A stretch of 64,000 nt of DNA from Patescibacteria group bacterium (lineage in GTDB: Bacteria > Patescibacteriota > Patescibacteriia > Magasanikbacterales > GWA2-37-8): positions 750,594-814,593 of the forward strand of contig JBAZNA010000001.1 of NCBI GenBank assembly GCA_041649475.1. Reading direction: 5' to 3'. The notes under the pieces were generated by a model. That model was not told where the DNA came from. It worked only from the letters and a program-made list of their open reading frames with translations, and did no database searches. Of this stretch, positions 55,029 to 58,996 are shown one piece after another. The translations under genes and the position numbers were made by a program. The number at the start of each line of letters is the position of its first letter. The first letter of the stretch is position 1.

Positions 55029-56120
55029 TTAGTCGCGATACAGTTTGCGCTCTTCCGGCTTAATATAATCTTCCTCATTAAACACTTCATTATATGACAC
55101 CGGTAATGGCTTGCCATATACCTTTGGGACAATATATTTATTAATAAAATCTTTATCCTCGGCCATATAACAGGACTCATAATACTGGCCAAAATATTTT
55201 ATATTTAGTCCTCTCTCAATAATGTCTTTAAGCGGTTCCTTGAAAAAATTCCCCAAGGAAACATGCATATACGGACAGGGCATCACGTCGCCATATTTGG
55301 TGATGGATATCATTCTCTTGACGGCAATACAGCCCAAATCCATGCCATATGACGGGGTTAAATGGGTGAAAGCATCGCACTCTTTTTCCAACCCGCGCAT
55401 ATAATTCATATCGTCTTTGTCCACCATGGCCTCAAAGTTCCCTTCCCAATCCCCGACCGGTTTGGCATAGGTGACAAAAACCGGCACGCCTTTTTGATTT
55501 AAAAATTTTAAAAAATCTTTAAATTCTTCCGACTTCAAGCGCTGTTTGGTAACAACGGTTTGCACAATAATATATAACCCGACTTTCTGGCAGGCCTCAA
55601 TTGCCCGCAAGGCGTTTTGGTACGCACCCGGTCTCTTTCTAAAATCATCATGGGCTTGGCTGTCCAAACTGTCCAAACTTAACTGGACTTTATCAACGCC
55701 AATATCTTTTAAATGTTTGGCTTTAGCTTCATCCAAAAACCAGCCGTTGGAATCGGAAACAATATAAAATTTCTGCGGATCAATGGCTTTAATTATTTCA
55801 TCAAAATCCGGAAACACCAGGGGTTCGCCGCCGGTAAGCACAATCTGCGCCAAACCCATCTCATCGGCTTGCCTGGCCAATTCTTTTACATCAGCCGGGG
55901 TAAAAGCCCGGTCTCCGGCCGGACGCCGCAGTTTGGTAATGCAACAGTGCTCACAACGAAAATTACAGGTGTAATCATACTGAAACTGAAGCATGGCAAT
56001 ACTTTCGCCTTTCTTGATCTTTTCTTCAAACTTCATTATTTTTTCATAAACATACGGTTTCGTTTCTTTTAATGTGTTCCTCCGGCTGGTTTCCGCTGCC
56101 TTTAATTCTGGTTGAGTCAT
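55029..56120 (-). CDS. Radical-SAM enzyme with a Cys-rich C-terminal (SPASM/twitch-like) extension
   Basis: YDYTCNFRCEHCC (CxxxCxxC), plus additional C-terminal Cys (...DVMPCPYMHVS...ESCYM). Confidence 0.65.
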   Translation of the reverse strand: MTQPELKAAETSRRNTLKETKPYVYEKIMKFEEKIKKGESIAMLQFQYDYTCNFRCEHCCITKLRRPAGDRAFTPADVKELARQADEMGLAQIVLTGGEPLVFPDFDEIIKAIDPQKFYIVSDSNGWFLDEAKAKHLKDIGVDKVQLSLDSLDSQAHDDFRKRPGAYQNALRAIEACQKVGLYIIVQTVVTKQRLKSEEFKDFLKFLNQKGVPVFVTYAKPVGDWEGNFEAMVDKDDMNYMRGLEKECDAFTHLTPSYGMDLGCIAVKRMISITKYGDVMPCPYMHVSLGNFFKEPLKDIIERGLNIKYFGQYYESCYMAEDKDFINKYIVPKVYGKPLPVSYNEVFNEEDYIKPEERKLYRD

Positions 56121-56124
56121 AATT

Positions 56125-57255
56125 TCAATTTAAGATTAAAACGGCCATCCCATTGTACTTTTCATGTATGATTTTAGCAACCTCATCAGCATAACTGCCG
56201 GCCATAATAATAATCGCCTCAACCGGATCAGAATTTAATTTTTCCGGAGCCACAATTGGTATATGCGTGGCCGGGGTGAATTTGCCCTGTTTAAAAGACG
56301 CGGAGTCAACAACATATTTAATTTTTCCTTCCAGATTCAATAAAGCCAGAGTCGCAAACGCCTGATGCCCGGCTCCCCAAACCGCTACCTTGCCGGGCGC
56401 AAACCGATTAATATAGTCCTCAATCTCTTTTTTAAGTTTTGCCTGTTTGTCGGAAAATAAAGCCAGGTCGGTTTTTCTTCTTTTTTTAACGACAGCGGAA
56501 ATTATATAATCATGCCAAACCTCTTTGCACTCCAAAACCTCAAAACCATTTATTTGCAAGGTTGTTTTCAGGGTTTCTTTGGTAAAATAAAACAGATGGT
56601 CGCGCATGAATTCTGAAAAAAGATTGTCCCGCAAAATCATGTCAAAGTTCGGCACCTCCACTATGCCAACCGCGCCGTCAGCCAAATTATTACTTATTCC
56701 GGCAAGCATTAGATTAAGATTTGGCAGATGTTCCAGCCAGCTTAAAACAAAAAAAGCGTCAAAGGGCGAATTGTCTATTTTGTAATCTTCTGTTTCTACA
56801 AATCCTTTACTAACTTTTAAACCATTTTTTAAGCACTGCGCCGCCGAGTCATCACCGTATTCCAAACCATAGGCATCGGCACCGGTTTGAGACATTATGG
56901 TCAAATACTCTCCCCTGCCACAGCCAATTTCAATGATTTTTTTACCGGCGAGAGAATATTTTTTGACAAAATCTTTAAACTGGCCGGATCGAAACTCTTT
57001 CATCTCCGGTGAAATCCCGGCCGCGCGTATGACTTCTCTATAATAAGAAACTGGTTCGCCAACCAGTTGCACTAGACCGCAACCCGCGCACTGATAAATT
57101 TCCAAATCCATCCCTTTATCCCGCGCGATTGTTGCCTCATCCGGTAAATGCTGGGCAACCATTGGCATGTTCTCATATTTTAACAGGGGTTCCGCCAACA
57201 ATGCCTTACCGCAAACCCGGCAATTATTTTTTGATAAAATGCTGGTACCATGCAT
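56125..57255 (-). CDS. NDP-hexose C-methyltransferase (TylCIII/Methyltransf_13-14 family)
   Basis: N-terminal Zn-binding CRVCGK...YQCAGCGLVQL, then IIEIGCGRGEYL (motif I), and a C-methyltransferase C-terminal domain. Confidence 0.65.
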   Translation of the reverse strand: MHGTSILSKNNCRVCGKALLAEPLLKYENMPMVAQHLPDEATIARDKGMDLEIYQCAGCGLVQLVGEPVSYYREVIRAAGISPEMKEFRSGQFKDFVKKYSLAGKKIIEIGCGRGEYLTIMSQTGADAYGLEYGDDSAAQCLKNGLKVSKGFVETEDYKIDNSPFDAFFVLSWLEHLPNLNLMLAGISNNLADGAVGIVEVPNFDMILRDNLFSEFMRDHLFYFTKETLKTTLQINGFEVLECKEVWHDYIISAVVKKRRKTDLALFSDKQAKLKKEIEDYINRFAPGKVAVWGAGHQAFATLALLNLEGKIKYVVDSASFKQGKFTPATHIPIVAPEKLNSDPVEAIIIMAGSYADEVAKIIHEKYNGMAVLILN

Positions 57256-58186
57256 AGGTTTCTTTTACTGCCGACTCAAAATCAGAATGTGGCGACCATC
57301 CCAAAATTCTGTCCGCTTTGGCAAAATTCAAACTTTGGCCCGGTATCTCATTTTTCTGATTATTTAAAATCTTATAATTTATTTTTACATCAATAACTTT
57401 AGAAATCTTTTCAATGAGATCCAGCACGGAAACATTTAAACCGGAACTGAAGTTAAAGGCCTCGCCTTGTGTTTTATCAATATTTTCCGCCAAAGACAGA
57501 TATCCATCCACAACATCTTTCACATAAATATAATCCCGTTTAAACGTGCCGTCACTGCGCAAATCCAAAACATTGCCGGTTATTGCGGCCATCATGATTC
57601 CCGGAACAATCCTGTCCATATTTAAATCCCCGGGGCCGAAAATATTACCGCAACGGCTGATAGCCACCGGCAATTTATAGGTTCTGTAGTAAGTGCGCGC
57701 GACTAAATCAGTGCAGGACTTGGAAACATCATAGGGATGATCGCCGGACAAAGCAAAATTCTCATCGGCATTCTGGCAATTTTTTCCGTAGGCCTTATCG
57801 CTGGAGGCCACTACCACGGCCTTGATATACGGTGAGTGTCGGGCCGCTTCCAAAACATTAACCGTTCCCATTATATTTGAAGCAAAGGTCTCGTATGGAT
57901 TTATAAAAGCGGCAGTGACAATCGGCTGGGCCCCGATATGAAAAACATGGCTGATTTCATACTTTGTCAAAATTTCAAACATCCGGTCTTTATTTTTAAG
58001 ATCGCCGTTTACACGAACTACTTTAGAACCAAAATTATTTGTTTCAAAATATGAATTCGGATCACAGCTGCGACTCAAACAAACTATTTGACGCGGTTGT
58101 AGCTTTAAAAGTTCCTCAACCAGATGAGAACCGACCAACCCGGTGGCGCCGGTTACAAAAATATTTTTTCCGGTGAGCGTGCTCAT
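57224..58186 (-). CDS. NAD-dependent epimerase/dehydratase (CDP-sugar reductase/epimerase candidate)
   Basis: KNIFVTGATGLVGSHLVEELL and HPYDVSKSCTDLV (YxxxK). Confidence 0.7.
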   Translation of the reverse strand: MSTLTGKNIFVTGATGLVGSHLVEELLKLQPRQIVCLSRSCDPNSYFETNNFGSKVVRVNGDLKNKDRMFEILTKYEISHVFHIGAQPIVTAAFINPYETFASNIMGTVNVLEAARHSPYIKAVVVASSDKAYGKNCQNADENFALSGDHPYDVSKSCTDLVARTYYRTYKLPVAISRCGNIFGPGDLNMDRIVPGIMMAAITGNVLDLRSDGTFKRDYIYVKDVVDGYLSLAENIDKTQGEAFNFSSGLNVSVLDLIEKISKVIDVKINYKILNNQKNEIPGQSLNFAKADRILGWSPHSDFESAVKETYAWYQHFIKK

Positions 58187-58207
58187 AGTCCGTTAAATAT
58201 AAAAAAT

Positions 58208-58996
58208 TTAGTTCTGCCAGACCTTCCAAAATGGATCTTTAGCCCAATGATTATTCATTTCTTCAACCTCTTTGTGCGTATCCATGCATTTCCATTTGCC
58301 GGAATGCAAATAAACTGAAAGCTCGCCTTTTTCGGCCAAAGGAGGAAACAGGGACTCTATCATGCTGTTTTCAGATATCATGTCCAAAACGTCGCGCTTA
58401 AAAACCATAAAACCGCCATTGATGAAGTCCTTTGACTTTTCGGTTGGGTTGCTGGTTACTTTGTGCTGAAAAAAATCCTCCGCTTTTTTGGTGTCATGAT
58501 TAATATTTAAAAAACCAAAGCGGGTGCCGGGATGCACGCCCGTAACCGTTCCCAGCGTGTTCTGGGCTTTATGAAAATCAACCAACTCTTTAATATTTAC
58601 ATCCCCCACCCCGTCTCCATAGGTCACCATAAAATCGTCTCCATCAATATATTGTTTCAACCGTCTCACTCTTTCTCCGGTCAAACTCTCCAAACCGGTT
58701 TCGACAAAGGTAATCTTAAAATCATCACAACCGTTATTGTGAAAATTTATTTCATGGGTCTTTGTATCCAAGGTAAAATCGCTTAGAGCGCTTTTCCAAT
58801 TCAAAAAAAACTGTTTAATCATTTCTCCTTTATAACCCAAAGCCAGAATAAACTCATTATATCCATAATGAGAATAGATTTTCATTATGTGCCACAAGAT
58901 TGGCTTTCCGCCAACCAAAACCAAGGGCTTGGGTTTAAACTCTGTTTCCTCTTTCATTCTTGTTCCTGTCCCTCCGCAAAGTATAACCGTTTTCAT
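58208..58996 (-). CDS. rfbF: Glucose-1-phosphate cytidylyltransferase
   Basis: MKTVILCGGTGTRMKEETEFKPKPLVLVGGKPILWHIMKIYSHYGYNEFILALGYKG tracks RfbF/DdhA closely. Confidence 0.8.
   Translation of the reverse strand: MKTVILCGGTGTRMKEETEFKPKPLVLVGGKPILWHIMKIYSHYGYNEFILALGYKGEMIKQFFLNWKSALSDFTLDTKTHEINFHNNGCDDFKITFVETGLESLTGERVRRLKQYIDGDDFMVTYGDGVGDVNIKELVDFHKAQNTLGTVTGVHPGTRFGFLNINHDTKKAEDFFQHKVTSNPTEKSKDFINGGFMVFKRDVLDMISENSMIESLFPPLAEKGELSVYLHSGKWKCMDTHKEVEEMNNHWAKDPFWKVWQN

Follow-up and report, generated by a model that had tools for sequence, protein, structure and literature searches.

A conserved cassette combining NeuB-like, YerE-like and radical-SAM enzymes in a Patescibacteria glycan locus as a candidate route to an acyl-branched 3,6-dideoxyhexose

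Introduction

Acyl-branched deoxysugars are the products of a pathway type known from Yersinia, Pectobacterium, Mycobacterium and Rhodopseudomonas. The described systems comprise those for yersiniose A (DdhA-D, YerE and YerF), erwiniose (ErwE/F/I/J), caryophyllose (MMAR_2331-2333) and gastriose (MyGE). In a published unifying scheme, DdhA, DdhB and DdhC supply cytidine diphosphate (CDP)-4-keto-3,6-dideoxyglucose while an aldolase supplies a 4-hydroxy-2-keto acid; a YerE-like enzyme then places the decarboxylated acyl unit on C4 of the sugar and a YerF-like reductase finishes the product (PMC9306805). The donors in the known YerE-type systems are made by pyruvate aldolases (PMC9306805). A review cites an in silico survey of more than 200 YerE-like clusters (PMC12247030). 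For the structures of aurantose and spirochaetose, nothing usable was found in the literature. The present analysis concerns a gene cassette at positions 46679-58996 of a 64,000-nucleotide stretch, hereafter the window, from the metagenome-assembled genome of a Patescibacteria group bacterium (GenBank assembly GCA_041649475.1, contig JBAZNA010000001.1, positions 750,594 to 814,593 of the forward strand). With a probability of roughly 0.55, this cassette directs the synthesis of a nucleotide-activated, acyl-branched 3,6-dideoxyhexose of the yersiniose, erwiniose and caryophyllose kind, and its product is most likely a long-branched surface sugar.

Organization of the cassette

[quoted passage not shown] All four were found as open reading frames (ORFs) on the minus strand at exactly the coordinates given, 55029-58996, separated by a gap of 21 nt, an overlap of 32 nt and a gap of 4 nt. 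The next five genes downstream follow at spacings of -8 to +4 nt. A spacing of -32 to +21 nt fits an operon and, from coordinates only, is compatible with translational coupling. Where the annotation saw a self-contained CDP-hexose branch, the four genes are one end of a larger operon-like cassette, 46679-58996, that also encodes a fusion of SDR, NeuB-like and cupin domains, a phosphatase of the haloacid dehalogenase (HAD) superfamily, a thiamine diphosphate (ThDP)-dependent enzyme, a Nudix protein, a family 2 glycosyltransferase (GT2), a GtrA-like protein and an E1 dehydrase. Listed from the upstream end, the cassette reads as follows.

58208..58996, minus strand: glucose-1-phosphate cytidylyltransferase (RfbF/DdhA-like), 262 amino acids; TIGR02623, PDB 1TZF
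57224..58186, minus strand: CDP-glucose 4,6-dehydratase (RfbG/DdhB-like SDR, here SDR1), 320 amino acids; TIGR02622, PDB 1RKX
56125..57255, minus strand: TcaB9/TylC3-type SAM-dependent C-methyltransferase, 376 amino acids; Pfam, PDB TcaB9
55029..56120, minus strand: radical-SAM enzyme of an uncharacterised family, its auxiliary-cluster domain of twitch type, 363 amino acids; Pfam, cysteine motifs
52434..55025, minus strand: tri-domain fusion of an SDR (here SDR2), a NeuB-like synthase and a cupin, 863 amino acids; Pfam Epimerase, NeuB and Cupin_2
51509..52441, minus strand: Cof-type HAD-IIB phosphatase, between the NeuB and ThDP genes; Hydrolase_3 (7e-10), TIGR00099
49832..51505, minus strand: YerE/JanthE-like ThDP-dependent carboligase; three TPP domains, PDB 8RPH
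49360..49827, minus strand: Nudix protein with a degenerate Nudix box, GDP-mannose mannosyl hydrolase-like; Pfam NUDIX
48411..49355, minus strand: GT2 polyprenyl-phosphate glycosyltransferase (PgfS/ArnC/GtrB-like); Glycos_transf_2
48034..48408, minus strand: GtrA-like small membrane protein; PF04138, 57.1 bits
46679..47983, minus strand: E1/RfbH/DdhC, CDP-4-keto-6-deoxy-D-glucose-3-dehydrase; NF011936, PDB 3BCX/3BB8

Conservation of the gene set

Relatives of the radical-SAM protein were sought in one genome per species; 178 were found and the 80 best loci were used. All window proteins were compared by BLAST with the six-frame ORFs of the comparison loci, and genes were counted at those 36 loci whose flanks covered the full 10 kb. 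Synteny is conserved in these 80 best genome loci, which span more than 15 phyla. The carriers among these 80 include Nitrospirota, Margulisiibacteriota, Omnitrophota, Planctomycetota, Elusimicrobiota, Lentisphaerota, Bacteroidota, Spirochaetota, Thermodesulfobacteriota, Acidobacteriota (Holophaga foetida DSM 6591), Thermotogota (Marinitoga lauensis), other lineages of the candidate phyla radiation (CPR) and one Methanosarcinales bin. The cassette is no speciality of small-genome bacteria, and the association with a small genome is incidental.

The usual gene order is RfbF, SDR1, E1, NeuB plus cupin, HAD phosphatase, ThDP enzyme and, in some cases, an SDR, followed by Nudix, methyltransferase, an optional B12-binding radical-SAM gene, the radical-SAM gene under study, an optional SDR and GT2. 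This order is shuffled between phyla while the gene set is kept together. In the full-flank loci, the methyltransferase is the most frequent companion (35/36), followed by the ThDP enzyme (32/36), NeuB plus cupin (30/36), E1 (28/36), Nudix (24/36), SDR1 (23/36), RfbF (21/36) and GT2 (20/36). The ThDP enzyme and E1 occur together in 27 of the 36. GT2 has a median identity of 58% in 44 loci, and a pairing of GtrA with GT2 is also present in locus L003.

Three types of SDR were distinguished in 84 loci: SDR2 (23 loci), an RmlD-like protein encoded after the ThDP enzyme (28 loci) and an SDR encoded after the radical-SAM enzyme (12 loci). No locus of the 84 holds two of the three. Since the types are mutually exclusive, they point to a single shared reductase step, which is read as a YerF-like ketoreduction because one of the types occupies a YerF-like position after the ThDP enzyme. 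For the same reason, namely that SDR2 and the SDR placed after the ThDP enzyme exclude each other, a reading of the radical-SAM enzyme and SDR2 as an AprD4/AprD3-like deoxygenation pair was down-weighted.

The gene block is also present on fifteen IMG/VR contigs classed as viral (L092-L106), the longest of 166 kb. They encode relatives of the radical-SAM enzyme at 50-58% identity, and most of these loci combine it with NeuB plus cupin, the ThDP enzyme and the methyltransferase as well as an SDR and an E1-like gene (for example, L098:3470-15900 and L095:1251-16100). In several of them a homologue of guanosine diphosphate (GDP)-mannose 4,6-dehydratase is nearby, which suggests a GDP-linked version of the cassette on these contigs.

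Enzymes of the proposed acceptor branch

The assignment of RfbF as a cytidylyltransferase, and not a thymidylyl- or uridylyltransferase, is upheld by the NCBIfam and PDB comparisons. The protein matches TIGR02623 over nearly its full length (277.9 bits, E = 7.6e-83, 1-260 versus 1-255), whereas the runner-up family reaches 80 bits and RmlA-long 39.6. Its best PDB match is 1TZF (E = 3.9e-60), with the next at 7.5e-17. The adjacent SDR1 comes after RfbF in the canonical cassette order and has TIGR02622 as its top-scoring family (197.3 bits) and 1RKX as its best PDB match (E = 1.5e-36). Its SSDKAYG and PYDVSK motifs align to SDKCYD and PYSNSK of 1RKX, corresponding to the S-D-K and YxxxK signatures.

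A second RfbG-like SDR at 18803-19909 lies among glycosyltransferase genes 36 kb from the cassette. It scores 149 bits against TIGR02622 and carries T-D-K and YxxxK motifs. While the first-pass annotation had recruited this gene as the dehydratase of the pathway, it was rejected in that role in favor of the adjacent SDR1: since SDR1 is itself a CDP-glucose 4,6-dehydratase, the distant gene is unnecessary.

The gene at 46679-47983, annotated earlier as an RfbH-like E1, proved to be just that. It scores 692.8 bits against NF011936, well past the cut-off of 423, and matches PDB entries 3BCX and 3BB8 at 1e-164. The segments YPAHHITMGEGG and DCWCKTGNDNTC were aligned to 3BCX; E1 keeps the AHH histidine that replaces the pyridoxal phosphate lysine and the C-x-C-x7-C iron-sulfur motif. 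In five genome loci and most viral loci, the E1 gene is directly downstream of the radical-SAM gene.

Enzymes of the proposed donor branch

The ThDP enzyme is closer to JanthE (8RPH, 2.6e-105) than to acetolactate synthase (6e-67) among PDB entries, and it carries a canonical GDG...NN motif. JanthE is a YerE-like, ketone-accepting carboligase (PMC12188165, PMC12247030). Direct orthology with JanthE is unsupported, as JanthE has CDG where the window enzyme has GDG (PMC12247030).

The NeuB domain of the fusion protein belongs to the uncharacterised subfamily of 3G8R, which it matches at 1.4e-117 versus 1e-24 for classical NeuB. At the family level it matches PF03102 (147 bits), and it stays below the equivalog cut-offs of TIGR03569 (146 vs 400) and PseI (133 vs 340). 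The C-terminal cupin resembles D-lyxose/D-mannose isomerase (4e-7 in the PDB). SDR2 makes up the first ~360 residues of the fusion; its homologues keep the GxxGxxG motif, the serine and the lysine of the active site, and in 22 of the 23 found in loci L001-L084 the YxxxK tyrosine is replaced by W, L or V. The HAD position is occupied at 36 of 84 loci by a non-orthologous, NT5C-like HAD protein of ~200 residues. For the Nudix protein, the NCBIfam match is PRK15434 (6.7e-7) and the best PDB matches are the GDP-mannose mannosyl hydrolases 2GT4 and 1RYA (7e-5), which have a similarly degenerate box.

The radical-SAM enzyme and the methyltransferase

The radical-SAM enzyme had been described as SPASM-like. 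The radical-SAM part of this claim stands: Pfam Radical_SAM is matched at 94 bits, and the core CX3CX2C motif (C52-x3-C56-x2-C59) and a GGEP SAM-binding motif are invariant in the family. The SPASM part does not, since the match to that profile is partial (25.9 bits, positions 1-46 of 67) and the only invariant cysteines after the core are C264, C282 and C317, in 18 of 18 sequences. While the CX9-15GX4C element is present as C264-x12-G277-x4-C282, the CX2CX5CX3C element of the seven-cysteine SPASM motif is absent in this 18-sequence comparison. With only three conserved cysteines in the C-terminal region, the domain is of the twitch type, a truncated SPASM. The cysteine pattern implies one auxiliary [4Fe-4S] cluster, which may have an open site as in MoaA. 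Its scores against NCBIfam models all stay far from the cut-offs (AhbD 113 vs 500 bits, MoaA 100 vs 284), and the best PDB matches are MoaA (6e-14) and BlsE (5e-13). No publication on this radical-SAM family or on the gene combination was found, the YerE-like cluster survey of Krug et al. (2024) being outside the comparison.

The protein has thousands of relatives, the best 120 of which are 67-79% identical to it, and identity stays at 62-77% across phyla in the genome loci. Clustering at 50% collapses the whole orthologous family to one representative, and relatives continue downward from 54%. Within the strict family, the methyltransferase and radical-SAM genes share a strand in 68 of 68 loci, and in 40 of these the methyltransferase gene comes directly upstream; most of the remainder have the Nudix gene or a B12-binding radical-SAM gene inserted between them. 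The B12 gene, with a tetratricopeptide repeat (TPR) tail, takes this intermediate position in 12 other genomes. Several more distant relatives, at 28-38% identity, combine this type of radical-SAM enzyme and a class I methyltransferase in one natural fusion protein; alignments of their catalytic cores with the window methyltransferase, at 9e-12 and 3e-8, take in both histidine motifs. The fusion proteins P0171, P0210, P0211, P0169 and P0223 combine twitch/SPASM radical-SAM and methyltransferase domains in both orders. The link between the two enzymes that had been suggested earlier is therefore supported by adjacency and by fusion.

Relatives of the radical-SAM enzyme at 54%, 49% and 46% identity still adjoin the ThDP enzyme. 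Their loci (L087:8001-10068, L091:9001-11147 and L090:926-3759) have NeuB plus cupin, a cupin-containing fragment or NeuB close by, each holds a DegT-family gene that is 35-48% identical to E1, and all three lack the methyltransferase and Nudix genes. In L087 and L091, a second SPASM radical-SAM gene is directly downstream, in the place of the methyltransferase. In the third, L090, the ThDP gene is split and there are numerous small ORFs that match no family. A 43%-identical relative, P0124, is found within four consecutive radical-SAM genes (L088:909-5243 and L089:534-4868), which is a different system. Because synteny with ThDP and NeuB persists where the methyltransferase is missing, and because of the adjacency and fusions described above, the radical-SAM enzyme belongs to the core of the NeuB/ThDP module for branched sugars and is the functional partner to a methyltransferase. 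It follows that its substrate is not necessarily a simple CDP-hexose, as had been proposed.

The methyltransferase is, as annotated, of the TylCIII type. It consists of a zinc ribbon, a Rossmann methyltransferase domain and a C-terminal Methyltransf_14 domain, with Pfam matches to Methyltransf_23 (50.6 bits), Methyltransf_14 (52.1 bits) and, below the cut-off of 31.3, Methyltransf_13 (27.5 bits). Its best PDB matches are the sugar 3-C-methyltransferases TcaB9 (2.4e-19), TylC3 (3.4e-15) and KijD1 (1.5e-14), and the first non-sugar methyltransferase appears at 1.7e-5. The zinc cysteines C12, C15, C56 and C59 are kept in 64-65 of 65 homologues. From mutagenesis work, we take the active site of TcaB9 to consist of His181, Glu224-His225, Tyr76 and Tyr222. 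The equivalents of His181 and His225 lie in the window enzyme within E175-H176 and D219-H220 and are invariant in the 65 homologues, and that of Glu224 is Asp in 63 of 65. The tyrosine positions are not conserved and are I and M in the window enzyme; Y76F and Y222F variants of TcaB9 are present among the PDB sequences matched. Enolate chemistry next to a keto group is the most likely mode of action.

Proposed pathway

The three acceptor enzymes are assigned their steps by strong homology. RfbF would make CDP-glucose, SDR1 would convert it to CDP-4-keto-6-deoxyglucose, and E1 would take off the 3-hydroxyl to give CDP-4-keto-3,6-dideoxyglucose as the ketone acceptor. For the donor, gene linkage and the published scheme suggest that the NeuB-like synthase may combine phosphoenolpyruvate (PEP) with an aldose to form a 3-deoxy-2-ulosonic alpha-keto acid resembling 2-keto-3-deoxy-D-glycero-D-galacto-nononic acid (KDN). 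A PEP-derived donor is proposed because the NeuB-like protein is the only aldol-type enzyme and is nearly always encoded beside the ThDP gene, with a phosphatase between. The isomerase-like cupin, the HAD phosphatase and possibly a sugar-releasing Nudix would assist. The aldose could arise from a hexose phosphate by way of the cupin followed by dephosphorylation, or from a nucleoside diphosphate (NDP)-sugar cleaved by the GDP-mannose mannosyl hydrolase-like Nudix.

On the same grounds of linkage and scheme, the ThDP enzyme would decarboxylate the ulosonic acid and attach the resulting acyl anion at the acceptor's C4. The ketone of the branch would then be reduced by one SDR, a role that would fall in the window to the SDR2 fused to NeuB. 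GT2 scores 183 bits against PgfS and 115 bits against ArnC in NCBIfam, both of which are polyprenyl-phosphate transferases. GT2 and GtrA together point to lipid-carrier transfer and extracytoplasmic attachment: they may load the product on polyprenyl phosphate for transfer to a surface polymer on the far side of the membrane. The least certain steps are those of the methyltransferase and the radical-SAM enzyme. The former may add a C-methyl group beside a keto group, at C3 or C5 of the NDP-4-ketosugar or at C3 of the ulosonic acid, and the latter may act on the same molecule by radical chemistry. Among the reactions considered for it are an oxidation or an epimerisation at an unactivated carbon, a dehydration, the formation of a C-C bond and, with less likelihood, a substitution for E3, the AscD/DdhD-type partner of E1.

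A more ambitious version of this pathway is tentative and rather doubtful. It holds that a KDN-like acid is grafted by the YerE-type enzyme on C4 of an NDP-4-keto-3,6-dideoxyhexose to yield an undescribed sugar of 14-15 carbons, and that the radical-SAM and methyltransferase pair performs a reaction new to sugar biosynthesis. Radical C-methylation at a non-activated position, radical carbocyclisation and rearrangement of the branch are candidates for that reaction. Such a sugar would then be widespread as a decoration on the surfaces of anaerobes, CPR bacteria and some large viruses.

Weighing the evidence

Several observations count against the acyl-branched assignment. Every function in the cassette is inferred. 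The score of RfbF falls narrowly below the TIGR02623 equivalog cut-off of 300.25, and that of SDR1 falls below the TIGR02622 cut-off of 278.45. SDR2, an extended SDR, lacks the catalytic tyrosine. An E3 gene (AscD/DdhD, of the Fer2/FNR type) was found neither in the 64-kb window nor in the conserved cassette at any locus inspected. Either of the two aldose routes could accommodate the Nudix and HAD proteins. To our knowledge, NeuB-family enzymes have not been documented as donors for YerE-type enzymes, and we know of no glycan structure for any carrier of the cassette. For the radical-SAM enzyme, an AlphaFold2 model built with 18 close homologues has a predicted local distance difference test (pLDDT) score of 64, which is low confidence, and Foldseek returned only generic radical-SAM neighbors with template-modelling (TM) scores of 0.41-0.47; because of both, no function was deduced from the fold. 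Lastly, the physiological substrate of JanthE itself is not known (PMC12188165).

Three other explanations were considered. The interpretation offered in the first-pass annotation was that the four flagged genes and E1 make a simple C-methyl-branched 3,6-dideoxy- or 6-deoxyhexose, with the radical-SAM enzyme epimerising or dehydrating the CDP-hexose; NeuB, ThDP, Nudix and HAD would then belong to a separate, neighboring pathway. A genuine E1, a methyltransferase with the full TcaB9/TylC3 architecture and both catalytic histidines, the contiguity of RfbF, SDR1, methyltransferase and radical-SAM genes in the window and in locus L020, and the fact that the nearest solved radical-SAM relatives (MoaA, BlsE and viperin) act on nucleotides or nucleosides would all be accommodated. 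This explanation is nevertheless unlikely, given that the ThDP enzyme (32/36) and NeuB plus cupin (30/36) accompany the radical-SAM enzyme more commonly than RfbF (21) or SDR1 (23), that the set stays intact while its order is shuffled across phyla, and that radical-SAM genes without a methyltransferase still sit beside ThDP with NeuB plus cupin, a cupin fragment or NeuB near. The cassette content predicts an acyl-branched higher sugar instead, and the earlier interpretation as a whole is partly supported. Its further premise, that chemistry familiar from actinomycete antibiotics is unknown in cell-surface glycans, is contradicted by the branched sugars documented in lipopolysaccharide (LPS) and lipooligosaccharide (PMC9306805). 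C-methyl sugars are likewise present in LPS, with virenose of Coxiella and, in Azotobacter, CDP-vinelose as examples.

The other two explanations reassign the enzymes of the cassette. In the first, a C-methyl deoxy-nonulosonic acid would be the end product of a legionaminic/pseudaminic-type route, in which a CDP-hexose that has been dehydrated, C-methylated, altered by the radical-SAM enzyme and reduced is freed by Nudix and joined to PEP by NeuB while the ThDP enzyme has a decarboxylating or side role. The parts needed are at hand, from the sugar-modifying set to the GDP-mannose mannosyl hydrolase-like Nudix and the NeuB homologue; SDR2 is fused to NeuB in the window, and the HAD phosphatase adjoins NeuB, an arrangement also seen in the KDN-9-P and Neu5Ac-9-P routes. 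It is quite improbable all the same. E1, present in 28 of 36 loci, would have no role, the ThDP enzyme belongs to the YerE/JanthE type in particular, the conserved GT2 is of the polyprenyl-phosphate transferase type that uses NDP-sugars, and a cytidine monophosphate (CMP)-ulosonic acid synthetase (CTP_transf_3) is missing from both cassette and window. The absence of E3 from every cassette examined, although E1 keeps its iron-sulfur motif, raises the further thought that the radical-SAM enzyme replaces E3 in anaerobes without AscD/DdhD, either by passing electrons to E1 or by being itself the reductive step of C-3 deoxygenation. Its predicted auxiliary cluster and the position of E1 directly downstream of it in five genome loci and most viral loci would suit such a role. 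Against this, the invariant SAM-cleaving cluster motif and GGEP point to radical initiation and not to simple electron transfer, a general ferredoxin or flavodoxin could serve E1, and we know of no precedent for such a substitution, all of which makes the proposal very improbable. An acyl-branched 3,6-dideoxyhexose remains the preferred product of the cassette.

Neighboring genes of the glycan locus

The cassette is part of a glycan locus of more than 60 kb, and nearly all genes of the window are on the minus strand. One further gene borders the cassette downstream and would bring it to twelve genes:

45166..46686, minus strand: polytopic, strongly hydrophobic membrane protein, 506 amino acids; start overlaps the E1 stop by 8 nt

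This protein has no Pfam or NCBIfam match and no homologue in the 84 comparison loci. It is a possible extracytoplasmic glycosyltransferase, and whether it belongs to the cassette is uncertain. Upstream of the cassette are a Wzy_C/O-antigen-ligase-like membrane protein whose C-terminal part is a TPR region (59006-61051) and a 914-residue protein with a lamin-tail domain (61136-63880).

Elsewhere in the window, a GDP-mannose 4,6-dehydratase (PF16363, 499.6 bits), a class I methyltransferase and a DegT aminotransferase are grouped at 41997-45169 in what looks like a separate GDP-perosamine-like amino-sugar branch. A set at 27079-31794 with a GHMP kinase, a SIS isomerase, an SDR, a HAD phosphatase, a nucleotidyltransferase and a transaldolase-like gene resembles a nucleotide-heptose pathway. 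At 23245-26223, a carbamoyltransferase (Carbam_trans_N/C) adjoins an ornithine-carbamoyltransferase-like gene, and the pair suggests O-carbamoylation of a sugar. Two B12-binding radical-SAM genes are located at 33166-35370 and 40048-42012; one of the two products (734 residues) is fused to a class I methyltransferase domain.

Significance and comparison with known systems

If the proposed pathway is correct, it joins PEP-dependent ulosonic-acid synthesis with ThDP-dependent acyl branching, two chemistries that are usually treated apart. It also gives a genomic context and a candidate substrate set for a very conserved, unstudied radical-SAM family, and it leads one to expect an unusual sugar on the surface of organisms with essentially uncharacterised envelopes. 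In the window organism, the glycan locus represents more than 6% of a Patescibacteria genome of ~1 Mb. The prediction is testable in the cultured carriers Holophaga foetida, Marinitoga lauensis LG1 and Thermodesulfovibrio hydrogeniphilus.

Individual parts of the cassette have counterparts in several known systems. As in the GtrA/GtrB, ArnC and PgfS systems, a GT2 with a C-terminal membrane anchor is followed by GtrA; in contrast to them, no final GT-C transferase was recognised in the cassette, the adjoining 506-residue protein being without a family match. A NeuB fold and a phosphatase next to NeuB are shared with KDN and nonulosonic-acid synthesis, and the mannose/lyxose-isomerase-like cupin and the Nudix also recall KDN and GDP-mannose mannosyl hydrolase systems. 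The cassette departs from those routes in having a NeuB of the 3G8R subfamily, in lacking a CMP-activating enzyme and in the proposed consumption of its ulosonic acid by the ThDP enzyme.

The methyltransferase shares with TcaB9, TylC3 and KijD1 the three-domain architecture, the Cys4 zinc site and the two histidine equivalents. It differs from them by its low similarity (E ~1e-19), the loss of the tyrosine equivalents, the change of Glu224 to Asp and its coupling to a radical-SAM enzyme, which those three lack. The radical-SAM enzyme has the CX3CX2C core, the CX9-15GX4C element and one further cysteine in common with MoaA, BlsE, BtrN and AhbD, which are its best sequence and fold matches. Unlike these, it has a unique, conserved N-terminal extension of 45 residues and is encoded in the context of a sugar cassette.

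The proposed pathway is of the same type as the acyl-branched systems. Like them, the cassette has an acceptor route through RfbF/DdhA, RfbG/DdhB and E1/DdhC, a YerE-family ThDP gene beside a gene that could make a 4-hydroxy-2-keto acid, one reductase and a dedicated glycosyltransferase. Unlike them, it probably relies on a PEP-dependent NeuB-cupin enzyme and not on a pyruvate aldolase for its donor, it is without E3, and it has an additional methyltransferase, twitch radical-SAM enzyme, Nudix and HAD phosphatase. Its distribution also differs, the main carriers being uncultivated anaerobes, CPR bacteria and IMG/VR contigs. Three features are new with respect to the described systems: a NeuB-type synthase in the proposed role of donor maker, the lack of an E3, and a methyltransferase, a twitch radical-SAM enzyme and a Nudix that are conserved as a set.

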